The notes: a model not told the origin generated them from the sequence alone. A stretch of DNA of 50,303 nt from an uncultured Acidobacteriota bacterium (GCA_902826465.1 CADEEX010000001.1:11162-61464); one strand, 5' to 3'; shown: positions 1 to 49,092, counted from the stretch's first letter. Made by a program: numbers and translations.

Positions 1-7
1 TGTAAGC

Positions 8-1888
8 TCAGGCGCGGCCCTCGCCTGAGTCGAGCACTTCGCGAATCTTGTCTGCCAGCGCCTGCAGCGTGAACGGTTTCTGAATGCGCGGCGTCGTCGG
101 CAACACCCGTGCGCTCTCGCCAGCTTCCGATGGCTCGAGCGTCACGAGCGACTGCAGCAGCGGATCGATTCCCTGCAGGCGCGTCACCAGCGGCACGCCC
201 TGATCGGTGACGGCGCGACTCCCCGAGACGACCAGGTGGACGCGCGAGGGTTGCGACGCGAACAGTTCTATCGCTTCAGCCGGCGACGCGGCATCGAGCA
301 CACGATAGCCGCGACGCCGCAGTGCTTCGCCGACAAATGATCGCGCCGCCGCGTCGGCTTCGACCACGAGAATCGTTTCCTGCCGATCGCGCTGCGCAGA
401 GGGCGTGTCGCCGGCGTTGGTCTTGATGGTGGGAAACAGAATCGTGAAGGTCGCGCCGCGGTCCGGCTCACTCTCGACCCATACGAAGCCGTGGCTCTGC
501 TTGATGATGCCGTAGACGGTGGCCAGGCCGAGGCCGCGGCCGTTCCCCATACGTTTCGTGGTGAAGAACGGCTGAAACGCGTAGGCCTTCGTCACCGGGT
601 CCATGCCGTGGCCGGTGTCGGCGAAGATCAGACGCACGTAGCGTCCCGGACGCAGCCAGACGCGTTCGCGCGACACGTGCCCGTCGACGTCGATGGCGTC
701 GACGACAATCGACAACACGCCGCCGGACGGCATCGCTTCGCGCGCATTGAGCGCCAGGTTGGCGATGACATGCTCGATCTGCCTCGGGTCGGCACTGATC
801 TGCGGCAGCGCATCGGGCATCACGACCTTCACGGTGATGTGGTCGCCAAGAATCTCGGCGAGTTGCGGCTGCAATCCGGCAATGAGCGCCGTCAGCGAGA
901 TCGGACGCAGCTCGAACACCTGCCGGCGACCGTAGGCCAGCAGTTGGCGCGTCATCGACGCCGCGCGCGACGCCGCTTCCTCGATGGCGACCACGGAGTG
1001 CTTCAGCGGATCGCCGGAAGGAATCGCCGCGATCAACTTCTCGGTGTTACCGCTGATCACCGTCAGCAGATTGTTGAAGTCGTGCGCCAGCCCACCGGCC
1101 AGTCGGCCAATGACTTCCATGCGCTCCGCGCCCTGCAGGCGCGTTTCGAGCCGCTTGCGCGACGTGATCTCGGCCACCTGCCCACGCAGCGACACGACGG
1201 CGCTGCCGACGCCGAACGACGCCGTGACGAGGCACGACACGTCGATCGACGATCCATCCTGCTGCGTCATCTGCAGTTCGACCGGGCCGGCACGGCCATC
1301 GACGCGCGCCACCGCCAGCAGCTTTTGCAGCACCGGGCCGTCGGGCGTGAGCTCCATCAGACTGCGGCCGATGAGCGGCGACCGGTCGTCGTAGCCGAGC
1401 GCCCGCGCCAGCACACCGTTGCAGTCGATCAGGCGCCAGTCGGGGGTCGAGACGAAGCGACCGTCGGTATCGTCCTCGAACAGATCGCGATAGCGCTGCT
1501 CGCTCCACGCCAGCGCGTCGGCCATGCGGTTGCGATCGGCGACGGACACGAAGGTCGACGCCACCAGGCGCTGGCCCGCCACTTCGAGAAGACGGGCAAC
1601 GTGCTCCACCGGCACCGACTCATCGTCTGCGCCGCGAAGAATCGTGTCATGCGCCCGCCTCGGCTCGCCGCCTTCGAGAACCGCACGCAGGACCTCGCCG
1701 ACAGCTGCCACGTGCACGCCCTTGGCCAGCGACTCGAGCCGGGTGCCGGCTGCGGGTCGCTGCCCAATGAGAGATCCGAACGCAGCCGTGGCCCAGACAA
1801 TGCCTTCGGCTGACGACACGACCACTGGCGCTTCCGCCGCGTCCCACAGCGCCGCCAGCAGTTCCGACGAGGGCACGTGCTGCATCAC
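8..1888 (-). CDS. hybrid sensor histidine kinase (PAS-like, HisKA, HATPase_c, C-terminal receiver)
   Basis: 626-aa ORF. H-box HDFNNLLTVISGN, ATP-binding motifs DTGHGM and GRGLGLATVYG, C-terminal receiver ILVVEADAAARSF. Start overlaps the stop of the upstream kinase gene (ATGA at 1885-1888). Confidence 0.85.
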   Translation of the reverse strand: MMQHVPSSELLAALWDAAEAPVVVSSAEGIVWATAAFGSLIGQRPAAGTRLESLAKGVHVAAVGEVLRAVLEGGEPRRAHDTILRGADDESVPVEHVARLLEVAGQRLVASTFVSVADRNRMADALAWSEQRYRDLFEDDTDGRFVSTPDWRLIDCNGVLARALGYDDRSPLIGRSLMELTPDGPVLQKLLAVARVDGRAGPVELQMTQQDGSSIDVSCLVTASFGVGSAVVSLRGQVAEITSRKRLETRLQGAERMEVIGRLAGGLAHDFNNLLTVISGNTEKLIAAIPSGDPLKHSVVAIEEAASRAASMTRQLLAYGRRQVFELRPISLTALIAGLQPQLAEILGDHITVKVVMPDALPQISADPRQIEHVIANLALNAREAMPSGGVLSIVVDAIDVDGHVSRERVWLRPGRYVRLIFADTGHGMDPVTKAYAFQPFFTTKRMGNGRGLGLATVYGIIKQSHGFVWVESEPDRGATFTILFPTIKTNAGDTPSAQRDRQETILVVEADAAARSFVGEALRRRGYRVLDAASPAEAIELFASQPSRVHLVVSGSRAVTDQGVPLVTRLQGIDPLLQSLVTLEPSEAGESARVLPTTPRIQKPFTLQALADKIREVLDSGEGRA

Positions 1889-3399
1889 GGCACTGGCGGA
1901 GCATCGAGCGCGCCGCGGACGGCGCGGAGCAGCGTCTGCCGATCGAACGGCTTGGCCACAAAGTGCGCGCCAGGCGCAGCGACACCGCCGGCCGCACCGC
2001 CCGTCGGCTCCGGAAATCCCGACATGTACATGACCTGCATGTCAGGCCGCTGCTCACGCAAGCGCGCAGACAGCTCGAGTCCACTCATCTCCGGCATCAC
2101 GACGTCGGTGACGAGCAACGGAATATCGCCATCGAATTCGCGGCTGATGCGGTCGGCGTCCGACGGCATCGGCGCCTCGAGCACGTGATAGCCGGCCAAC
2201 GACAGGATGTCGCGGACCAGTTCACGGACTCCGTCTTCGTCTTCGACGAGCAGCACGGTTTCGCTGCCGCCGACCGACGGGCTCGGCTTGTGGCGGTCGG
2301 TGACGGTGGCTTCGTAGACTCGCGGCAGGCCAAACGACACCGTGGTTCCACGACCGACAGTACTGGTCAGCTTTGTCCAGCCACCGGCGTCACGGACGAT
2401 GTTGTAGACGTTGGCGAGGCCGAGACCGGTCCCTTCGCCAATCGCTTTGGTCGTGAAGAACGGCTCGAACGCCTGGGCGAGCGTGGTCGAATCCATCCCC
2501 ACACCGGTGTCGCTGACGCTGATCGACACCGACGGGCCGATCGCCAGGCCGCCGTGCATACCAGCGGCGACATTGCGCGTCTCGATTGTCAGCCGTCCAC
2601 CAGAGGGCATTGCGTCACGAGCGTTGGCGGCGAGGTTGAACAGCACCTGCTCAATCTGCGTCCGATCGGCCTTGATCGGCCACACCGAATCGGTGTTGAG
2701 CACCTGCACGTCGATGTGTTCGCCGACCATTGGCCTCAAGAGCTGACCAACCTCGGCCACCACAATGTTGAGGTCGAGCACCACCGGGGTATCAGCGCTC
2801 TGACGTCCGAACGCGAGCAGTCGGCGCACCAACGCGGCGGCTCGTTCGGCCGTCACCTGAATGGCGTCACCCTGTGTGCGGAGCGGCGACTCGGCCGGCA
2901 GCTCGTCGAGCATGCGGCCGCTGGCGCCGATGATGATCGTGAGCAGATTTCCGAAGTCGTGTGCGATACCGCTCGCCAGCCGCCCCACCACTTCCATCTT
3001 CTGCGCCTGCCGCAACTGATCTTCGAGATCGCGCACGCGCGCTTCCAGATGACGGCGATCGGTGACGTCGGTCCCGACGAGTCCGATCGCCGGCCGCTCG
3101 GCACCTTCGAGGAGGGTCAGCGTCGCGTCGAGGCGGTGCCAGCGCCCATTGACGTCGAGCATCTCGAACTCGAGTTCGCGACGCCCGCCCTGCGACAACG
3201 CTTCCTGAAACGCGCCGTGCACGGAGACCACGTCGTTCGGGTGCACGAGTTCCCACAACACGTTGCCGCGGACTTCTGTGGGCAGCAGGCCCAGCGTCGA
3301 TTGAATGGCGGGGCTGACGAAGGTCATCGATCCCGATGGATCGAGGATGGCGCAGATGTCGCGCGCGCTGGCAACGAGATCTCTGAATCGATCAGGCAT
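1885..3399 (-). CDS. hybrid sensor histidine kinase (PAS, HisKA, HATPase_c, C-terminal receiver)
   Basis: 504-aa ORF. PAS-like N-terminus, H-box HDFGNLLTIIIGA, DTGVGM and GTGLGLANVY motifs, receiver VLLVEDEDGVRELV...DVVMPEMSG. Lies 44 nt downstream of motB. Confidence 0.85.
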   Translation of the reverse strand: MPDRFRDLVASARDICAILDPSGSMTFVSPAIQSTLGLLPTEVRGNVLWELVHPNDVVSVHGAFQEALSQGGRRELEFEMLDVNGRWHRLDATLTLLEGAERPAIGLVGTDVTDRRHLEARVRDLEDQLRQAQKMEVVGRLASGIAHDFGNLLTIIIGASGRMLDELPAESPLRTQGDAIQVTAERAAALVRRLLAFGRQSADTPVVLDLNIVVAEVGQLLRPMVGEHIDVQVLNTDSVWPIKADRTQIEQVLFNLAANARDAMPSGGRLTIETRNVAAGMHGGLAIGPSVSISVSDTGVGMDSTTLAQAFEPFFTTKAIGEGTGLGLANVYNIVRDAGGWTKLTSTVGRGTTVSFGLPRVYEATVTDRHKPSPSVGGSETVLLVEDEDGVRELVRDILSLAGYHVLEAPMPSDADRISREFDGDIPLLVTDVVMPEMSGLELSARLREQRPDMQVMYMSGFPEPTGGAAGGVAAPGAHFVAKPFDRQTLLRAVRGALDAPPVP

Positions 3400-3443
3400 C
3401 GAGGTGGCGCGACCCGCGGGCGCGCCACATCATACCAGTCGCC

Positions 3444-4367
3444 TCAGTGCTGCGCGGCGGCGGGCGGCGCCAGTGCGGCGGCGGCCTCAGCCGCTACGTG
3501 CGCGGCATCGCCAGGCGCGGCCGGGTGCGCCGCGTCTTCGGTCGTCGTCACCGTCGGCACGAGCGGAGCCTTCGCCGCTTCCGCGGCCCGCGTCTCGGCC
3601 AGTGCCTTCTTCATGGCAGGGCTTCTGACGAGGATCGACACGCGCCTGTTGCGAGCGTCGGTGGGGTCTTCAGGTATGCGCAATTCACGATCGGCAAGAC
3701 CGCGGACACTGTTCACGTGACCGGCGTCGACGCCATTGCGCTCGATGATCCGGCGCGCGGCGTTGGCGCGATCCGAGGAGAGTTCCCAGTTCGAGTAGCC
3801 GTCGCTGGAGGAGTACTGGCGGCTGTCGGTGTGCCCCTCGAGATCGAGGTCATGACCGAGCAGCGCGAGCTGCTTGCCGATGACGGCAAGCAACTGCTCG
3901 CTTTCGCCGACCAGCTTTGCGCTGCCGGAGTCGAAGAAGCTCGATTCGGCCTTCTCGATGAGATCGATACGCAGCCCTTCAGGCGTCACGGTGAACTCGA
4001 TCTGATCGCGGAGCCCCTGAAAGGTGGGATTCGTGTCGAGCTCGAGCTTGATCTGGGCGACGACCGACTCGAGTTGCTTCTGCTCGGCGTCGGCGTCGGT
4101 GATCGGCGCCTGCGGCTTCGGCTCGCCGATCGAATCGGCGCCCGGCAGCACCCCTTTGCCGCCGTCCATCCCGGCGATCGGATCGCGGAAGTAGCCGCCG
4201 ACACCAGCCTTCACCTGCGGGCTCTGGTTGACCAGCCACATCACCAGGAAGAACGCCATCATCGCGGTCACGAAGTCGGCATACGCGACTTTCCAGGCAC
4301 CGCCATGGTGGCCGCCGTGGCCCCCCTTCTTCTTGACGATGATGACCGGCTGAACCTGATTGCTCAT
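3444..4367 (-). CDS. motB: flagellar stator protein MotB (OmpA-like C-terminal peptidoglycan-binding domain)
   Basis: 307 aa. N-terminus KKKGGHGGHHGGAWKVAYADFVTAMMAFFLVMWL is the typical MotB plug/TM with the conserved Asp. OmpA-like LEGHTDS...NRRV motif. Ala/Pro-rich C-terminal tail. ATG at 4367, 2 nt after the motA stop. Confidence 0.9.
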   Translation of the reverse strand: MSNQVQPVIIVKKKGGHGGHHGGAWKVAYADFVTAMMAFFLVMWLVNQSPQVKAGVGGYFRDPIAGMDGGKGVLPGADSIGEPKPQAPITDADAEQKQLESVVAQIKLELDTNPTFQGLRDQIEFTVTPEGLRIDLIEKAESSFFDSGSAKLVGESEQLLAVIGKQLALLGHDLDLEGHTDSRQYSSSDGYSNWELSSDRANAARRIIERNGVDAGHVNSVRGLADRELRIPEDPTDARNRRVSILVRSPAMKKALAETRAAEAAKAPLVPTVTTTEDAAHPAAPGDAAHVAAEAAAALAPPAAAQH

Positions 4368-4369
4368 GA

Positions 4370-5251
4370 CTAGGCGGCCGCCGCGGCAGCCGGCGCTTCA
4401 GCCTTGGTGCCCTTGCACAACTGCTCTGTCTCCTCGAAGCTCGGTCGCAATTCGTCTGGCAGCACGCGCCGCGCGAACTCGATGGACACCATCGGCGAGA
4501 AGCCCTTGTACATCGCCAGCAGCCCGGACTTGATGCACTGTTCGTAGTGACCTTCCATGGCCACCCGCAGTTCCATGCTGGTCGCCATCGGCTGCATGAA
4601 GCCGTACGACATCAGAATGCCGAGGAACGTGCCGACCAGCGCCGCGCCCACCTTGTGCCCGATTTCCGCAGGTGGCCCGTCGATCACGCCCATCGTGATG
4701 ACGACGCCGAGCACGGCCGCGACGATGCCGAGGCCGGGCATGGCATCCGCCACCTTGTTCAGCGTCGCCGCCGGACGTGCCTCTTCGTGATGACGCACCT
4801 CGAGATCGAGATCCATCAGGTTCTCGAAGTCGTGCGGGCCGATGCCACCGATGATGATCACCTTCACCGAATCGGCCAGGAAGTCGACGGCATGGTGCCT
4901 GGCCAGAAACTTCGGGTACTTCGACATGATCGCGCTCTCGGCCGGCTTCTCGAAGTGTGACTCGAGCGCCATGACTCCCGACTGCTGCGCCGCCTTGAAA
5001 ATCTGATAGAGCATCGCCAGCAGCTCTTTGTAGTCGTTCTTGGTCGATCCCGTGGCCAGCAGCCCCTTCAGCTGCCCGAGCATTCCTTTCAGGATCGACG
5101 GCGGCGTGCCAATCAGCATGCTGCCCAGTGCCGCGCCGCCGATGATGACGAACTCGGCGGGCTGGACCAGCACCAGAAGGTTGCCACCTTCCATGAGGTA
5201 GCCGCCGACAACTGACGCAGTGACGATGACGAATCCGATGATCAGAAACAT
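4370..5251 (-). CDS. motA: flagellar stator protein MotA
   Basis: 293 aa. N-terminus MFLIIGFVIVTASVVGGYLMEGGNLLVLVQPAEFVIIGGAALG is classic MotA. Four predicted TM segments. ATG directly abuts the TAA of the upstream regulator gene. Confidence 0.92.
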   Translation of the reverse strand: MFLIIGFVIVTASVVGGYLMEGGNLLVLVQPAEFVIIGGAALGSMLIGTPPSILKGMLGQLKGLLATGSTKNDYKELLAMLYQIFKAAQQSGVMALESHFEKPAESAIMSKYPKFLARHHAVDFLADSVKVIIIGGIGPHDFENLMDLDLEVRHHEEARPAATLNKVADAMPGLGIVAAVLGVVITMGVIDGPPAEIGHKVGAALVGTFLGILMSYGFMQPMATSMELRVAMEGHYEQCIKSGLLAMYKGFSPMVSIEFARRVLPDELRPSFEETEQLCKGTKAEAPAAAAAA

Positions 5252-6355
5252 TTATGCGACCGGCGTTGCCGGGCCTCCATCATTCACCGTGTCTGACGGC
5301 GTCTCCCCCTGAGACGCGGCCGGCCGTGCATCGTCCTGGCAGCAGAGCCACGCATTGACGACCTGCGGGTCGAACCATGACCCTGAGTGGCGCACGAGCT
5401 GTGCGTTGGCGGCCGCCACAGACTGGGCGGGCGGCGTGTCGGTACCGCCGCTCAGGGAGTCGTACGCCTCGGCCACCGCGATGATGCGGGCGCCGATCGG
5501 AATGGCGCCCGTGCGCAGCCGACGCGGATAGCCGCGTCCGTCGAAGCGCTCGCGCGTGGCACCAACGATTTCCGCCGTCGGCGACAAATAGGGCACGCGC
5601 GCCAGCGCCTCTTCGGCGACCCGGACGTGCGAGCGGACGATCGCGTGCTCGCCGGAGCTGAGCGGCCAGGCCTTGCGGATGATGGAGCGTGGGATCGCCA
5701 GCTTGCCGATATCGTGCAGGAGCGCCGCGCGCTTGATGTGCCCGAGCAGCGGTTCAGCGATATCGAGCGCGTGCGATAGACGAATCGCTGTCACCGCCAC
5801 ACGACGGGCATGTTCGAGCGCTGCCACGTTCGGGCCATACAATTCATTGAGGCAGGCCTGCAGCTCCCGCGTCGATGCAATCGCCGCGTCGTTCAGCGAG
5901 CCGCCGATGCGGACGGCACTGTCAGCAATCTCGTCCTCGTACTTGGCGAGCGTGCCGCGTGACTGCTGCACGGTCTCCCGCCACTCCATGGCGCGGTTGA
6001 CGGCATCGGTCAGTTCGCCATGCGACACCGGCTTGGCGAGATAGTCGACGATGCCGAGACGCAGAGCCTCGATCAGATCTTCGAGGCTGCGATTGGCCGC
6101 GATGAGCACGACGCCGACATCCCGGCTTTCATGCCGCAGCCGTTCCGCCAGCTTCAGCCCGTCCGCCGGGGCAAGCCCCGAGACGTCAAGCAGTGCCACG
6201 TCTACGTCCGTGCGCCGTGCCACAGCCAGCGCTTCGCGCGACCCGCTGGCACCGGAGCAACGAAACCTGTCACCGTCCAGCGACTGGCAGATCAACAGGG
6301 TCAAATCCGTGTCCTCGCCGACGACGAGAACGTGGGGCAGTTCCGAACTGGCCAT
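5252..6355 (-). CDS. response regulator with HD-GYP domain (RpfG-type putative c-di-GMP phosphodiesterase)
   Basis: Receiver HVLVVGEDTDL...VALLDVSG...DYLAKP, followed by HDIGKLAIP ... DGRGYP motifs. The ORF track extends to a TTG at 6403. I prefer the ATG at 6355 (MASSELPHVLVV) because a sigma-28-like site lies at 6405-6431. Confidence 0.85.
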   Translation of the reverse strand: MASSELPHVLVVGEDTDLTLLICQSLDGDRFRCSGASGSREALAVARRTDVDVALLDVSGLAPADGLKLAERLRHESRDVGVVLIAANRSLEDLIEALRLGIVDYLAKPVSHGELTDAVNRAMEWRETVQQSRGTLAKYEDEIADSAVRIGGSLNDAAIASTRELQACLNELYGPNVAALEHARRVAVTAIRLSHALDIAEPLLGHIKRAALLHDIGKLAIPRSIIRKAWPLSSGEHAIVRSHVRVAEEALARVPYLSPTAEIVGATRERFDGRGYPRRLRTGAIPIGARIIAVAEAYDSLSGGTDTPPAQSVAAANAQLVRHSGSWFDPQVVNAWLCCQDDARPAASQGETPSDTVNDGGPATPVA

Positions 6356-6404
6356 GAATTGGTGTCTACGAATGTCCCGGGAGACGCCGATGTCTCCGGC
6401 CAAG

Positions 6405-6431
6405 GAATCGGCGGGGGGAACGGCGGCTTGA
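6405..6431 (-). promoter_or_regulatory. sigma-28 (FliA)-like promoter candidate for the HD-GYP-motAB-kinase operon
   Basis: Minus strand reads TCAA-N15-GCCGATTC (consensus TAAA-N15-GCCGATAA), about 50 nt upstream of the ATG at 6355. Confidence 0.4.
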
Positions 6432-6449
6432 ATGCAGCGGGAGGAAGGC

Positions 6450-6476
6450 CACGCTGCAGCGGTGAGCCGCAGCGTG
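6450..6476 (-). terminator. possible hairpin terminator after the CapD-like gene
   Basis: Inverted repeat CACGCTGC ... GCAGCGTG (8 bp, 11-nt spacer) 25 nt past the stop at 6501. Only a weak C/T-rich tail follows, with no U-run. Confidence 0.3.
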
Positions 6477-6500
6477 CAGGGAGGGGTCGGGAGCGACGAC

Positions 6501-7790
6501 CTAGCGAAGCCAGCTCGCGCGGCGCGCCGGTGCGGTGCGCACCACTCGCAGCCGCGAGCTGTCTGCCGCGGACGACGGCGATGTCGACGCGCTGCGTGGT
6601 GTCGCGGGCCGGTTCACCACGACCGCGTGATGGCGCACCAGCGGCCGCGGCCGCGAGGCGCGGGCTGTGCCGATGATCTGAGTCTTCACTTCGCGGGCCA
6701 GCGTCCAGGCCTGCTCGCTCGGGACGAAATCCGGAATCGCCAGTGTCAGTGCGGTCATCACGCCGTAGGCGTCGTCGCGCGCCACGGCCCGGCGCAGCGT
6801 CCTCAACCAGGCCTCGGAGCCGGTCGAACGGGTCCGCGCCTGATGCGCGACCCACACACGGTCGTGGGCCGTCTTCTCGAGACGGATGCCCTGAGACGTC
6901 AGCTCTTCGGCCATCTTCTCGCCGGGACGCAGGCCGACAACCTCGACGTGGACCTCCGGCAGTCCCTGGTCGCGTGCAATCGCGAGCATCCTGTCCGCCA
7001 GATCGCCGACGCGCACCTGCGGGCCCATGTCCAGCCAGAACGTTTCACCGCCGCCGGCCAGCGTGGCGGCTTTCATGACCAGCGACGCGGCCTCGGACAC
7101 CGTCATGAAGAAGCGGGTCGCATTCGGGTCGGTCAGCAGAATCGGCTGTCCATGGCGGATCCGCTCGCGCATCACCTCCACGAAGCTGCCACTGCTCGCC
7201 AGCACGTTGCCGAAGCGGACGACGATCGGCCGGCGCACCTCGGCGTAGGAGCCGAGTACCACCTGCTCGGCAAGGCGCTTGGTGGCGCCCATGACGCTAT
7301 GCGGGGCGGCCGCCTTGTCAGTGGAGATCAGGACGAAGCGGGCACCAACCTCGCGCGAAGCCGCGAGCACGGCGCTGGTCCCGAGAATGTTGACCCGCGC
7401 CGCCGCACAGATCGCACGCTCGGCCATCGTCACATGCTTGTAGGCCGCGGCGTGGAAGACGATGTCCGGGCGGACACGACGCATGACGCGAGCGATGCTC
7501 GAGGCACGCGTCACGTCGCACAGCACCGGCTCGAGAGCCACGGTGGGGCTGGCGGCAGACAGTACCTGCTCGATGCGGAAGAGCGCGAGTTCCGACTGCT
7601 CGACCAGGACCAGCTGCTTCGGCTGGCAGGCCGCAATCTGTCGCGCCAGTTCCGACCCCACGGTGCCGCCAGCGCCAGTGATCAGGCAGACCTGACCGGC
7701 AAAGGCGGCGCGGTCATCGTCGGACAGCAGCGATTCGACCTGTCGTCCCAACAGACGTTCTTCTTCAGCGTGTGTGAGCATGTCCATCAT
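6501..7790 (-). CDS. NDP-sugar 4,6-dehydratase/epimerase, CapD/PglF/PseB-like (Polysacc_synt_2 type)
   Basis: 429 aa. Rossmann motif CLITGAGGTVGSELARQI and the FHAAAYKHV active-site region typical of CapD/WbpM/PglF C-terminal domains. Start ATGA-coupled to the motB2 stop (7787-7790). Confidence 0.8.
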   Translation of the reverse strand: MMDMLTHAEEERLLGRQVESLLSDDDRAAFAGQVCLITGAGGTVGSELARQIAACQPKQLVLVEQSELALFRIEQVLSAASPTVALEPVLCDVTRASSIARVMRRVRPDIVFHAAAYKHVTMAERAICAAARVNILGTSAVLAASREVGARFVLISTDKAAAPHSVMGATKRLAEQVVLGSYAEVRRPIVVRFGNVLASSGSFVEVMRERIRHGQPILLTDPNATRFFMTVSEAASLVMKAATLAGGGETFWLDMGPQVRVGDLADRMLAIARDQGLPEVHVEVVGLRPGEKMAEELTSQGIRLEKTAHDRVWVAHQARTRSTGSEAWLRTLRRAVARDDAYGVMTALTLAIPDFVPSEQAWTLAREVKTQIIGTARASRPRPLVRHHAVVVNRPATPRSASTSPSSAADSSRLRVVRTAPARRASWLR

Positions 7791-8533
7791 GGCGTCGAGC
7801 CGGTCGTCGCCGGCTCCTCTCGGTTGGTGGTGGCCGCGTTCAGAATGACGAGATCGATGCGCCGGTTGCTGGCGCGCGTTTCCGCGGTGCCGTTCGGCAC
7901 GCGCGGGTGAAATTCACCGTAGCCGGTGGCCGACAGACGGGCCGGGGCGAGGCCTCGCGCGATCAGGAACTCGACGACCCGGCTGGCACGCGCCGCCGAG
8001 AGGTCCCAGTTCGACTGAAACCGCACGGTATGAATCGGCACGTCGTCGGTATGTCCTTCGACGCGAACGGCATTCGGGAATCGGTTCAGAACAACGGCCA
8101 CACGGGCGACCAGCGCCTGGGCCGTATCGGACAGATCGTCACGTCCGGTGCCAAATGCGCCGGCTTCGGGAATCGACAGCGTCACGCCGCGACGGTCGAC
8201 AATCAGCTCCAGCCGCTCCATCTGCAGTTCGCCAGCCAGTTCCTGCGACACCGCGGCTTCGACCTCTTCGCTCGACGGCTCGTCAGCGGCGCCAATGGCC
8301 GCGCTGCCGGCACGCACACCGTCAACATTGGGCGACGGCTTGGCGCGCGCCGAGTCGTCGAACGCCGACCGCATCGCCGTCGACATCCGCTGCAGCTTCT
8401 GCGCGTCGACGTTCGAGATGGCATACATCGTCGCGAAGAACGCGAACAGCAGCGTCATGAAGTCGGCGTACGAGACCAGCCAACGGTCGCGCGACAGGTG
8501 CGCAATGGTTCGGCGCTGTGCCAGGCGTCGCAT
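7787..8533 (-). CDS. second MotB-family stator protein (OmpA-like C-terminus)
   Basis: 248 aa. DRWLVSYADFMTLLFAFFATMYAIS (TM with conserved Asp). C-terminal VEGHTDD...NRRIDLVIL OmpA-like motif. Start shares 1 nt with the motA2 stop. Confidence 0.85.
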   Translation of the reverse strand: MRRLAQRRTIAHLSRDRWLVSYADFMTLLFAFFATMYAISNVDAQKLQRMSTAMRSAFDDSARAKPSPNVDGVRAGSAAIGAADEPSSEEVEAAVSQELAGELQMERLELIVDRRGVTLSIPEAGAFGTGRDDLSDTAQALVARVAVVLNRFPNAVRVEGHTDDVPIHTVRFQSNWDLSAARASRVVEFLIARGLAPARLSATGYGEFHPRVPNGTAETRASNRRIDLVILNAATTNREEPATTGSTP

Positions 8534-9345
8534 CAGGCCACCTTCCGCGCTGTCTCGTCGTGGTTGGCGACCAGCAGAAAGCCGCGGAGCTTCTGCTCGA
8601 TGACGCGGGGATTGGCGCCCTCCTGAACCGACACCATGCCCTCGATGACCAGTTCGCGAATCAGCGCGGCACGGCGGGCGCTGCCGCGCAGGCGTGTCGC
8701 CAGTGGCAACAGCAGCAGGTTGGCCACGGCAACGCCGTAGACGGTGGCGACGAACGCCACGGCGATGCCGCCGCCCAGCTTGGATGGGTCGCTGAGGCTC
8801 TGCATCACGTGAATCAGGCCCAGCACCGCCCCGAGGATGCCAAGCGTCGGGGCGTAACCGGCGGCGGTCTCGAGCACTTCGGCCGGCGCCTCTTCGCGCT
8901 CGCGGCGCGCGTCGCTTTCGACCTCGAGGATCTGGCGCGAGACCTTGGTTGAGGTGTTGTCAACGGCGAGGTTGAGCGCCATTCGCAGAAACGAATCCTG
9001 CGCCCGCTCCACTTCGGACTCGAGGGCGACGACGCCCTTGCGCCGCGAGATATTCGAGTAGCTGATGATGTCGGCGAGAATGCGGTCGAGAGAGTCAGGG
9101 CTGACGAACAGGGCCGCGCGCACGGCGACACCGGTCCGTTTGATCAGGGCCAGCGGATAGCTGACCATCACCGCCGCCAGCGTGCCGCCAAACACCACCA
9201 GCGCTGCGGTCGGCTGCCACAACGCCCGCACCGGCGCGCCTTCGAGCTTCTGTGCGAGCACGACGACCGCGAGCGCCGCCGGAATGCCGATGACGGTGGC
9301 CAGCTCGAACTTCGCCGACGACGACGAACGGCGACCAACGCTCAC
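8533..9345 (-). CDS. second MotA/PomA-family stator channel protein (MotA_ExbB)
   Basis: 270 aa, multi-TM. C-terminal AAGYAPTLGILGAVLGLIHVM...GGIAVAFVATVYGVAVANLLLLP is the MotA/TolQ/ExbB signature. GTG start overlaps the upstream stop (GTGA). Confidence 0.85.
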   Translation of the reverse strand: MSVGRRSSSSAKFELATVIGIPAALAVVVLAQKLEGAPVRALWQPTAALVVFGGTLAAVMVSYPLALIKRTGVAVRAALFVSPDSLDRILADIISYSNISRRKGVVALESEVERAQDSFLRMALNLAVDNTSTKVSRQILEVESDARREREEAPAEVLETAAGYAPTLGILGAVLGLIHVMQSLSDPSKLGGGIAVAFVATVYGVAVANLLLLPLATRLRGSARRAALIRELVIEGMVSVQEGANPRVIEQKLRGFLLVANHDETARKVA

Positions 9346-14451: not shown

Positions 14452-14479
14452 TAAAGCGCGTGGACTCGTGTCCGATTAC
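14452..14479 (+). promoter_or_regulatory. sigma-28 (FliA) promoter of fliC
   Basis: TAAA-N15-TCCGATTA against consensus TAAA-N15-GCCGATAA, about 85 nt upstream of the fliC ATG. Confidence 0.75.
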
Positions 14480-22323: not shown

Positions 22324-22350
22324 CAATCGGCCGCCCTCTTGAATCCTTTA
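22324..22350 (-). promoter_or_regulatory. sigma-28 (FliA) promoter of flgM-flgN-flgKL-fliW-csrA
   Basis: Minus strand reads TAAA-N15-GCCGATTG, about 42 nt upstream of the flgM ATG. Confidence 0.75.
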
Positions 22351-30290: not shown

Positions 30291-31028
30291 TTACCGTGAC
30301 TCCGACAGTTGAAGAGACTCCCGCAGGCAGGTCCGGAGACGGGCGATCGCCTGGGTCCGGATCTGCGAGACGCGCGACTCGCCAACGCCGATGACGACAC
30401 CGATTTCCGCCAGCGTCAGCTCGTGTTCGTAGTACAGCGACAGGATCTGCCGTTCGCGCTCGGGAATCTGCATCAGGGCGCGGCCGAGGTGCTCGCGCAG
30501 CTCGGCGCGTTCCAGGCGCGCGTGCGGGCCTTCGTCCGATTCGAGCGCGACTTCGAGCAGCGGCTGGTCGTCCGGGGCCTCGAGCTGGCGCAGCGTCGCC
30601 AGATCGACGGCGCGAATCTGCTCGAGCATCTTCTCGTATTCAGGTTCGGACACGTCGAGCGTGCCGGCAATCTCCTTCGACGTCGGCTCGCGGCGCAGTT
30701 CGTGCCGCACTTTCGAGATGGCGGCGTCGATCTCGCGGCGCATGCGGCGCACCGATCGCGGCGCCCAATCCATCCCGCGCAGCGAATCCACCATGGCACC
30801 GTGCACGCGTCGACGGGCAAAGGCGTCGAACGGCACACCGAGAGCCGGCTGAAAGCGACGGGCGGCTTCGACCAGCCCCATCATGCCGACGCTGACGAGT
30901 TCGTTGAACTCGACGTGTGCGGGCACGCGGTGCGACATGCGCGCAGCCAGCGTCTTGACCAGCTCGACGTGCTCGAGCACGAGCTTGTTCGCGGCTTCGA
31001 CGTCGACTTCAATCGGTTTCAGGCGCAT
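30291..31028 (-). CDS. fliA: flagellar sigma factor FliA (sigma-28)
   Basis: 245 aa. Sigma-70 regions 2, 3 and 4 ([17 protein letters not shown]..., [28 protein letters not shown]). Position after flhF-flhG. Confidence 0.92.
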
Positions 31029-39914: not shown

Positions 39915-39941
39915 CTTATCGGCGCTCAGGAGGCCGTGTCC
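39915..39941 (-). promoter_or_regulatory. sigma-28-like promoter candidate for cheY-cheX
   Basis: Minus strand reads TGGA-N15-GCCGATAA. The -10 element is a perfect consensus. It lies 32 nt upstream of the cheY ATG and overlaps the last codons of the upstream gene. Confidence 0.4.
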
Positions 39942-41269
39942 ATGGCCATCACCGCTTCGCGCTCAGAGATACACAGCGTGAATTCCTGTGGCTCTCCGCT
40001 CATCGAGTCGAACCCGAATCCCATCTTGACCGTGTCGCCTACCGGATCGGTCGGAGCGCCAGTGACCGGCAGCCCGATGTGCGCCCGGAGGCCGTTGGCG
40101 GTGAGCCCGTGCTGGACGCGTCCACCCACCATGTTCAGAATCTCGGCGAGCGCGCTCGTCGCGGCGTCGCCTGGCAACTCGTCAATCGGCGATTGCAGCA
40201 TCCGCGCCGCCAATTCCAGACCGGTCTTCTCGCTGATGCTGGCGCCCACCAGAATGTCGGCGTTCTGCTCTGAGAGTGTCACCGGCACCTGCACGCTGAC
40301 TCCCGTCTTCGGCACCACCGGCGGCGTCTCGAGGATGTTGACCTCGGTGCCGAGCATCATGCCGAACACCTGTTCCACCGCCGAGATTGCCTGCGACCTG
40401 AATCCCGGCATCGCCACTGCCACCTTGGCGAGCACGCCTGGCGGCCGCAGCGTCTGCTCGAACTGCAGCAGAAACGTTTCCGGCACGAAGGATCGCACCG
40501 CGATCCAATCAAATAACCCGAGCGCTCGCGCCTCCTCGACCCGGCTCTTCGTCATGACGGCCACGAGTTGTGTCTCGGCCATCGTGTCGAGCTGCCGAAT
40601 CCTCCTCGCGAACGACTCCTGACTCATCGTGCCGGTCTTCGACCCGACCAGAATCGCATTCGGCGGCTGGTTCAGGCACATCGCCATCGCCTGAGCAGCC
40701 GATGCAATGGTCACGACCTCATACTTCTGTCGAAACACATCCGAGCAGAAGTGGCGAAAATCGAGGTCTTCGTCGATCACCAGCAGCGTGAACGCGCTGG
40801 GCGCCTGCATCGCCGTTCGCCGTCCGGCGTGGCTGCGACTGGACGCAATCTGCTGCTCGGACGAAAACACCCGCCGCATGCGTTCAACAACCACCGCCTG
40901 GTGCTGATCTTTCAGCACATAGTCGGACACGCCCAGCTCCACCGCCGCCTTGATCGTCTCTGCGTCCTTCTTCTCGGTGACGATGACGACCGGCAGGTGG
41001 CGATGACGCACCGATGACCTGATGTCACGCAGCACCTCGAGGCCGCCGAGCCCGGGAATCTTCAGGTCGAGGACGAGTGCGTCGATGTCCTGGCTGTCCA
41101 GTTCCTCGAGCACGCGGATGCCGTTGTCGGCTTCGACGACGGTGCTCTTGAACTCGCGCAGCAGCACGCGTCTCAGCACATGTCGCGCCGCCGTGTCGGC
41201 GTCGGCCAGCAGCACCGTCAAGCTGCGCGAAATGCCGCCCGATCCTTTGTGTGTCTTTGCGCTGGTCAC
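39926..41269 (-). CDS. receiver + degenerate receiver + CheX-like domain fusion protein
   Basis: 447 aa. REC1 VLLADAD...ALVLDLKIPGLGG...DYVLK. A second REC-like region lacks the acceptor Asp (AILVGSKTG). The C-terminal CheX-like region has SALAEILNMVGGRV. GTG start. Confidence 0.8.
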   Translation of the reverse strand: MTSAKTHKGSGGISRSLTVLLADADTAARHVLRRVLLREFKSTVVEADNGIRVLEELDSQDIDALVLDLKIPGLGGLEVLRDIRSSVRHRHLPVVIVTEKKDAETIKAAVELGVSDYVLKDQHQAVVVERMRRVFSSEQQIASSRSHAGRRTAMQAPSAFTLLVIDEDLDFRHFCSDVFRQKYEVVTIASAAQAMAMCLNQPPNAILVGSKTGTMSQESFARRIRQLDTMAETQLVAVMTKSRVEEARALGLFDWIAVRSFVPETFLLQFEQTLRPPGVLAKVAVAMPGFRSQAISAVEQVFGMMLGTEVNILETPPVVPKTGVSVQVPVTLSEQNADILVGASISEKTGLELAARMLQSPIDELPGDAATSALAEILNMVGGRVQHGLTANGLRAHIGLPVTGAPTDPVGDTVKMGFGFDSMSGEPQEFTLCISEREAVMAMDTAS

Positions 41270-49065: not shown

Positions 49066-49092
49066 TCAAGCGACCCTCCTGGGCGCCGATTG
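49066..49092 (+). promoter_or_regulatory. sigma-28-like promoter candidate for the small secreted protein / MCP2 unit
   Basis: Plus strand reads TCAA-N15-GCCGATTG, about 65 nt upstream of the ATG at 49157. Same -35 variant as the motA-operon candidate. Confidence 0.4.

Follow-up and report, generated by a model that had tools for sequence, protein, structure and literature searches.

Why should the gene of a response regulator be built into the operon of a flagellar stator, and what could its product do there? The question is raised by a 50,303-nucleotide stretch of DNA, hereafter the window, from an uncultured Acidobacteriota bacterium (GCA_902826465.1, CADEEX010000001.1:11162-61464), a soil organism of the Vicinamibacterales. 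Near its first letter, on the minus strand, lie five genes for a regulator with a receiver (REC) and an HD-GYP domain, the stator proteins MotA and MotB and two sensor kinases. A first-pass annotation of the window had taken the regulator for a phosphodiesterase (PDE) that clears cyclic di-GMP (c-di-GMP) locally. Here we give a different answer, to which we assign somewhat better than even chances: the unit would be a late sigma-28 operon that joins a second, MotAB-type stator to a dedicated signalling module, led by an HD-GYP regulator acting on the stator without enzymatic activity. The regulatory link between regulator and stator is likely, and its action is probably non-enzymatic; we infer that the stator is the physical target, that the adjacent kinases donate the phosphoryl group and that enzyme activity is lacking.

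The putative stator operon and its promoter motif

Pfam analysis bore out the gene order given by the first-pass annotation, all on the minus strand: the REC-HD-GYP regulator (5252-6355; Response_reg and HD_5/HD), motA (4370-5251; MotA_N and MotA_ExbB), motB (3444-4367; MotB_plug and OmpA), a first kinase (1885-3399; PAS-HisKA-HATPase_c-Response_reg) and a second kinase (8-1888; PAS-PAS-HisKA-HATPase_c with a C-terminal pseudo-receiver). The junctions were read directly. The TAA of the regulator immediately adjoins the ATG of motA with a 0-nt gap, and motA and motB are 2 nt apart (TAG-tc-ATG), both as claimed earlier; the kinase genes, said to overlap by ATGA, in fact meet at GTGATG, where they share either 4 nt (GTGA) or 1 nt (TGATG). 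The gap from motB to the first kinase is 44 nt. Since a convergent gene for a Zn-dependent dehydrogenase (Zn-ADH) comes next, followed by gcpE and recQ, the unit ends at the second kinase. No Hpt gene or further signalling gene was found 3' of the last kinase, where the neighbours encode Zn-ADH, GcpE and RecQ. A scan for intrinsic terminators and sigma-70 sites in positions 1-7000 and past the last kinase gave nothing above chance, and an Rfam scan of the whole window, which covers c-di-GMP riboswitches among others, returned zero matches. The sequence thus supports five genes forming a tight unit that closes the flagellar supercluster.

The unit is preceded, at 6405..6431 on the minus strand, by a sigma-28 (FliA)-type promoter, TCAAG-N14-GCCGATTC (TCAAGCCGCCGTTCCCCCCGCCGATTC in full). 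A sigma-28-like site had been proposed here before, and the motif stood up to scrutiny, being found upstream of late flagellar genes and kept in orthologues. With T(A/C)AA-N15-GCCGAT(A/T)(A/T) as the consensus tested, the form TMAA-N15-GCCGAT occurred 4 times in the window as against 0.15 expected; relaxed to [GT]CCGAT, the motif was met 61 times across the 4.93-Mb assembly, including 5 times within the 50-kb window. Sites of this type also lie before fliC (14452-14478, plus strand, TAAAG-N14-TCCGATTA), before the gene that precedes flgK in the flgM slot (22324-22350, minus strand, TAAAG-N14-GCCGATTG) and before a gene for a small secreted protein with a CarboxypepD_reg-like domain (49066-49092, plus strand, TCAAG-N14-GCCGATTG). 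The regulator orthologue is preceded by TCAAG (once TGAAG or TCAAT)-N14/15-GCCGAT at 14 of the 15 other loci examined, and by the variant TAAAG-N14-ACCGAT at the fifteenth (L149). The spacers vary across loci, and therefore the motif is a phylogenetic footprint; the assignment as a putative sigma-28 promoter is well supported. In E. coli motAB belongs to class III, and a sigma-28-dependent motAB unit is ordinary; the unusual part of the present one is its first gene.

Elsewhere in the genome, the sigma-28-like motif T[AC]AAG-N14-GCCGAT[AT][AT] stands in leader position before two genes for GGDEF diguanylate cyclases and two for single-domain receivers, and again before the gene of a DnaJ protein that matches PilZ below threshold (the five motifs are G000:C15:14448(+), G000:C470:1573(-), G000:C15:12013(-), G000:C59:9425(-) and G000:C223:3299(-)). 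The FliA regulon of the bacterium may accordingly span c-di-GMP enzymes, to judge from these motifs. Between the promoter and the regulator gene lies a leader of ~45 nt (6356-6404, minus strand) in which GGAGAC…GTCTCC forms a perfect hairpin; a GGGA/GGGGAG element, 17-20 nt ahead of the regulator ATG, recurs in four orthologous leaders. We rejected a structured 5' leader as a candidate, its consensus fold being weak and its pairing poorly supported; binding of CsrA to the leader is conceivable.

The window as a whole is a flagellar and chemotaxis supercluster with nearly all of its genes on the minus strand (Pfam). It begins at ~48 kb with genes for a methyl-accepting chemotaxis protein and with cheA, followed by the fliP/fliR/flhB/flhA export genes, with no gene assigned as fliQ, and further includes flhF, flhG, fliA (30291-31028), fliM, fliN, flgF-I and flgK/L; fliC and fliD are on the plus strand, and beyond them is a nonulosonic-acid sugar operon holding another motA/motB pair. 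The five-gene stator unit is the final one of the supercluster. Right beside cheB and a separate CheX gene we also noted the gene of a 447-aa protein (39926-41269, minus strand) in which a receiver is combined with a region like PDE8A_N and with a weak match to CheX.

The two stator pairs are of different types. MotA of the five-gene unit (MotA1) matched the NCBIfam equivalog TIGR03818 with 352.6 bits (cut-off 303.8). Its partner MotB1 has a plug, a transmembrane segment with the conserved Asp (AYADFVT) and an OmpA-like domain, and its best NCBIfam match was MotB PRK09041, at 222 bits under the cut-off of 277. The other pair (MotA2/MotB2; 7787..9345, minus strand, Pfam), just upstream and inside the sugar operon, is of the MotC/MotD type: MotA2 matched PRK09109 (MotC-type) with 264.5 bits against a cut-off of 237, and the best match of MotB2 was MotD. 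As MotA1 passes the MotA model and MotA2 the MotC-type model, the layout is that of a MotAB plus MotCD-like dual stator, and in most loci the regulator gene stands exactly between both pairs. The MotC/MotD-type pair itself sits between a cytidylyltransferase gene and a PseB-like dehydratase gene, an arrangement that recurs in several related contigs.

The HD-GYP site, the receiver and the kinases

The 367 aa of the regulator comprise a receiver of atypical sequence and a degenerate HD-GYP domain, joined by a long linker helix. Pfam placed Response_reg at residues 9-120 and HD_5 at residues 179-332, which is the REC plus HD-GYP architecture of the RpfG family, and in the source databases the protein is named as a c-di-GMP phosphodiesterase of that family. 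Translation probably starts from the ATG at 6355; the orthologue in a related genome (G002) begins at the equivalent ATG, immediately past a stop codon. In an AlphaFold2 model built with 53 homologues (pLDDT 93.4, pTM 0.83), a long helix (residues 112-156) links the receiver to the HD-GYP domain, and the best Foldseek matches, at probability 1.00, were the HD-GYP domains 4r8z, 4mcw and 9rbz (PA4781, PmGH and c-di-GMP-bound DvhD). The HD-GYP fold is predicted with high confidence to be kept. The ratio dN/dS (omega) was ~0.06-0.2 over the whole gene and 0.03-0.18 over the HD-GYP domain, comparable with MotA1, these values being rough because dS is saturated. The regulator gene is functional, and its HD-GYP domain is under purifying selection.

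When the HD-GYP-fold domain (5345..5821, minus strand) was aligned with PmGH, PA4781 and V-cGAP3, it was found to keep the H…HD…H ligands and the GYP motif and to have lost the ligands of the G-site. The HDIGK and DGRGYP motifs had been described as intact, and both are indeed present, LLHDIGK aligning with the HD (H221, D222) of the three proteins in agreement with HDxGK; what had been overlooked is that the HHE just before DGRGYP reads TRE. The segment ATRERFDGRGYP lies opposite the HHE(R/K)xDGxGYP of PA4781, V-cGAP3 and PmGH with HH changed to TR, so the HHExxDGxGYP pattern is broken, and because HHE reads TRE both histidines of the G-site are lost. The codons of T267-R268-E269, which replace the canonical HHE (H276/H277 of PmGH), are at 5549..5557 on the minus strand, as read from the translation and from alignments to Protein Data Bank (PDB) structures; Glu296 (5468..5470, minus strand) takes the place of the metal ligand D305 in the same kind of alignment. 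In PmGH numbering, H189, H221/D222 and H250 are present, while Thr stands for H276, Arg for H277, Glu for D305 and Ala for E185. The segment with the substrate contacts R314 and K317 (RxYK) is gone, and SLSGGTDTPP is found in its place.

An assembly or sequencing error as the source of TRE was rejected. All of the ~47 independent cluster representatives at no less than 56% identity carry [TSV]RE, all but one of them have Glu at the D305 position and none has RxYK; since they share identical changes, the remodelling is fixed and not a sequencing error. Glu occupies the D305 position in every one of the 23 close clade members, and Asp does so in all 12 unlinked relatives. Hydrolysis is not expected of such a site, because H276, H277, E185 and R314/K317 are missing and D305 is Glu, and the proposed local clearing of c-di-GMP by a phosphodiesterase was therefore not borne out. 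The alignments indicate that the HD-GYP domain is probably catalytically inactive, and also that the RpfG-family phosphodiesterase label is probably wrong for the whole clade; counting its members as phosphodiesterases in census studies would misjudge c-di-GMP turnover in soil Acidobacteria.

The same residues could also belong to an enzyme with altered chemistry. On this account, essentially a modified phosphodiesterase reading, the protein would be a remodelled mononuclear HD enzyme (H182, H214-D215, E296 and H243) in which Arg268 replaces the lost metal, and its substrate, broken down close to the motor, would be c-di-GMP, pGpG or some other nucleotide. In its favour, DGxGYP, the lysine of HDxGK and the H…HD…D/E ligands show little or no variation within the clade; the changes to Arg and Glu, being fixed and not random, would fit a rebuilt site; and the D305A and E185A mutants of PmGH retain some activity (PMC4159591). 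Moreover, the genome encodes 12 GGDEF and 7 PilZ domains, and therefore c-di-GMP signalling exists in it. We nevertheless consider such an enzyme unlikely, as the H276A and H277A mutations each essentially abolish the activity of PmGH (PMC4159591), natural proteins in which HHE is altered have proved inactive wherever tested (HnoD and ECA3548, preprint 10.1101/2021.11.05.467447; DvhD, PMC13090378), and the R314 and K317 contacts are absent here.

The receiver domain (5996..6331, minus strand) is likewise unusual. According to the alignment columns, out of the canonical quintet D12, D13, D57, T87 and K109, D57 and K109 are kept; Gly stands for D12 and Ala for T87, and the usual D-D-E of the acidic pocket is G-E-D here. 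A register shift of one residue could supply an E-D pair, and PhoB has a comparable one. Ala is found at the T87 position in 21 of 23 close clade members, and in nearly all of the ~47 representatives, a few having Ser. Across the stator-linked group the receiver takes several forms: canonical in G007, L111 and G025, T87A in the clade of the window, and a pseudo-receiver with Gly for D57 in L112, L115 and L136. At two loci, L138 (G015:C372, 8023-8688) and L139 (G018:C9, 7867-8592), the motA-adjacent gene encodes an HD-GYP-fold domain only, of the SRE variant and without a receiver. Since the receiver may thus be canonical, T87A, pseudo or absent, the HD-GYP-fold domain, and not the phospho-switch, is the constant partner of the stator.

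Both kinases are soluble, without membrane segments, and have CckA-like cores (Pfam, NCBIfam). They had been taken for two hybrid kinases, which holds for the one at 1885-3399, with its canonical receiver (LLVTDVVMP … KPF). The one at 8-1888 gave no Pfam Response_reg match, and its C-terminus is homologous to the receiver of the first kinase (E 3e-10) with the acceptor Asp replaced; it has a pseudo-receiver, and hence only the first kinase is a true hybrid. In the gap between motB and the first kinase (3405..3437, minus strand) lies an extended -10-like element, TGGTATGAT, with a 7-bp G+C hairpin that has no U-tract. Element and hairpin are kept in the window and in the related genomes G002 and G003, and a similar element, GGTATCAT, is present at a locus with 42% identity. 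The element may be an internal promoter, or a processing or attenuation site.

Conservation of the linkage and the possible target of the regulator

The relatives compared were metagenome-assembled genomes (MAGs), and several of their contigs are short. A search with the regulator alone was rejected as a source of orthologues, the 80 loci returned being paralogues of 25-48% identity with no mot genes within ~8 kb; orthologues were found via the relatives and via MotA1. An orthologue of MotA1 is present in 11 of the 41 relatives. An HD-GYP gene lies directly upstream in 8 of these 11, sometimes with one hybrid kinase in between, and in two others the contig stops there, one showing a hybrid kinase joined by ATGA to motA like the regulator-kinase-motA variant. 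The order regulator-[kinase]-motA-motB(-kinases) was also met on four more genome contigs and five metagenome contigs, down to 38% identity. A REC-HD-GYP gene stands with motA-motB at 17 loci, at two of them without the receiver domain. Three homologues at 36% identity or less had no mot genes nearby.

A maximum-likelihood tree of 81 REC-HD-GYP proteins placed all 17 stator-linked ones on one side of a branch (SH-aLRT 90) and all 17 unlinked ones on the opposite side, the tree being unrooted; not one of 500 label shuffles matched the observed split. HHE is found in none of the stator-linked proteins, which have SHE/THE or xRE, and in some of the unlinked relatives. The basal stator-linked lineages have SHE or THE and keep D305 and RxY(R/C), and the xRE clade, which includes the regulator of the window, is nested among the stator-linked lineages with 96% support. 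Thus the earlier placing of the regulator in the stator unit could be extended, its linkage being conserved in Vicinamibacterales and other Acidobacteriota contigs, although the c-di-GMP clearance mechanism attached to it is unsupported.

Two of the loci call for separate remarks. At G006:C15 (L103 / L117) all the genes of the orthologous region are split across frames, for which assembly indel errors are likelier than pseudogenes. At L113 / L102 (CAZOAZ010000024.1), a contig labelled 'uncultured Bifidobacterium sp.', the operon is of the Vicinamibacterales type with 66-77% identity, and the label is probably a binning or taxonomy error.

This record bears on whether the arrangement is an accident of history, with an ordinary two-component system flanking motAB by chance and no functional coupling between them. 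The content and position of the kinases do differ among lineages, kinases being found after motB or between regulator and motA in many, not all, orthologous loci, and the possible internal promoter before the kinases would agree with such an origin. Set against this are 17 linked loci across deep divergence on one side of a branch, a conserved sigma-28 promoter and junctions that are tight or overlapping, and we regard chance adjacency as very improbable.

A non-enzymatic regulator need not have the stator as its target. It might instead act on a diguanylate cyclase (DGC) or phosphodiesterase elsewhere, with its sigma-28 motAB position merely timing its expression with late flagellar assembly. 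Related proteins provide the model: HnoD inhibits the phosphodiesterase HnoB (preprint 10.1101/2021.11.05.467447), for NosR the proposed target is a diguanylate cyclase or phosphodiesterase (PMC12570481), and the GYP motif of RpfG binds GGDEF proteins (PMC3749722). The sigma-28-like motifs before two GGDEF genes imply that the late regulon may hold partner enzymes. On the other hand, timing alone needs no position next to motA, the adjacency with its TAA|ATG coupling persists to 38% identity while the kinases vary, and even receiver-less and pseudo-receiver forms stay next to stator genes. We therefore hold a distant cyclase or phosphodiesterase target to be rather improbable.

The stator-acting, non-enzymatic regulator that we favour would work as follows. 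The operon, the last of the flagellar supercluster, would be FliA-dependent. The regulator, a member of the RpfG family by architecture, would have given up c-di-GMP hydrolysis and would act non-enzymatically on the co-translated MotA1/MotB1, controlling whether this stator engages, or which of the two stators, the MotAB-type one or its MotCD-type neighbour, is used. Its action would pass through protein-protein contacts, which GYP may mediate and which a nucleotide bound at the metal-depleted site may gate, and the two cytoplasmic PAS kinases would set its state via the atypical, Asp-containing receiver.

Several observations weigh against this mechanism. A flagellated relative (G028; 1 of the 11 with MotA1) has the MotA1 stator without an HD-GYP gene, and at one locus, where MotA1/B1 is not adjacent, the regulator and a hybrid kinase come after a MotCD-like pair. 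Signalling through the receiver may suffer from T87A and from the changes in the acidic pocket, and since the first kinase is a hybrid and the operon has no Hpt gene, direct phosphotransfer to the regulator is not assured. The TGGTATGAT element with its hairpin could mean that the kinases have a transcript of their own, in addition to the shared one or in its place. Finally, the regulator keeps the mononuclear HD set H…HD…D/E together with H250, which may leave room for some hydrolysis.

As a broader and more tentative proposal, which we think less likely than not, the stator-linked HD-GYP proteins without HHE may form an undescribed class of stator accessory proteins that bind MotA1/MotB1 directly and, through phosphorylation by PAS kinases and/or binding of c-di-GMP or a related nucleotide at the metal-depleted site, set the choice between MotAB- and MotCD-type stators in dual-stator Acidobacteria. 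If our reading is true, a protein of the HD-GYP fold, coupled to motA and encoded between two stator pairs, would be a stator regulator of a new kind, and would give a handle on how the choice is made in bacteria that have stators of two types. The change of HD-GYP enzymes into receptors or adaptors also has a defined test case in this fixed Thr-Arg-Glu / Glu remodelling of a di- or tri-metal site.

Comparison with known systems

Our search of the literature found no description of an HD-GYP protein in a motAB operon, or of motility in Vicinamibacterales. HD-GYP proteins that work without catalysis are on record, PA2572 being one precedent (PMC3749722). Close in architecture are HnoD (Shewanella oneidensis SO_2541) and NosR (Burkholderia BPSS1648), which, like the present regulator, combine REC and HD-GYP with altered active-site motifs, hydrolysis being either absent or not to be expected. 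Both work through protein-protein interactions, and phosphorylation comes from a kinase of the same operon, as shown for NosK and the non-catalytic NosR (PMC12570481). In these proteins the HD dyad itself is lost (SE, HG), whereas the regulator described here keeps HD and GYP, its changes being limited to HH, D305, E185 and RxYK; and they sit in nitric oxide (NO)-sensing operons, whereas it sits in a stator operon. It matched the NosR family model NF053512 in the HD-GYP part only, with 130.9 bits against a cut-off of 400, and is therefore not a member of the NosR family.

RpfG of Xanthomonas campestris is a phosphorylated REC-HD-GYP protein that controls a motility motor post-translationally, in an RpfG-GGDEF-PilZ-PilT complex that depends on GYP and does not need the enzyme activity (PMC3749722); GYP is invariant in the present regulator too. 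The target of RpfG, however, is the ATPase of the type IV pilus, reached via GGDEF/PilZ adaptors, and rpfG is not in a motor operon. The gene studied here is translationally coupled to a flagellar motA, unlike rpfG. For the function that we propose, the nearest precedents are this RpfG complex and the PilZ proteins that act on MotA or MotC.

DvhD of Desulfovibrio vulgaris (PDB 9rbz/9rc0), which is among the best sequence and fold matches, has an HD-GYP fold without the HH pair, as does the regulator, and binds c-di-GMP without metal and without hydrolysis (PMC13090378). It differs in architecture (dCache-PAS-HD-GYP, transmembrane), in its role, which is the control of an adhesin protease, and in having SQ at the HD position. 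The active enzymes PmGH, PA4781, TM0186 and the V-cGAPs have in common with the regulator the fold, HDxGK, DGxGYP, H189, H221/D222 and H250; unlike them, the regulator is without H276, H277, E185 and R314/K317, and has Glu for D305.

The post-translational inputs to stators known so far are mostly PilZ proteins, and one of them, FlgZ of Pseudomonas, acts on MotC in a motor with dual MotAB/MotCD stators. YcgR (E. coli), MotI/DgrA (B. subtilis), FlgZ and tPilZ of Campylobacter jejuni are all c-di-GMP-family domains that act directly on MotA-type stators, and, as cited in PMC12943098, tPilZ has lost the c-di-GMP motifs and still stabilises the stator ring. A PilZ domain (RxxxR, (D/N)xSxxG) was sought by Pfam in the five products of our operon with no match, and the parallel with these proteins is one of function. 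If the broader and more tentative proposal given above is true, degenerate HD-GYP proteins might be an overlooked stator-control module parallel to the PilZ brakes. The known effectors have the PilZ fold and their genes are not built into the motAB operon in this way, whereas the present regulator has the HD-GYP fold and its gene leads the operon.

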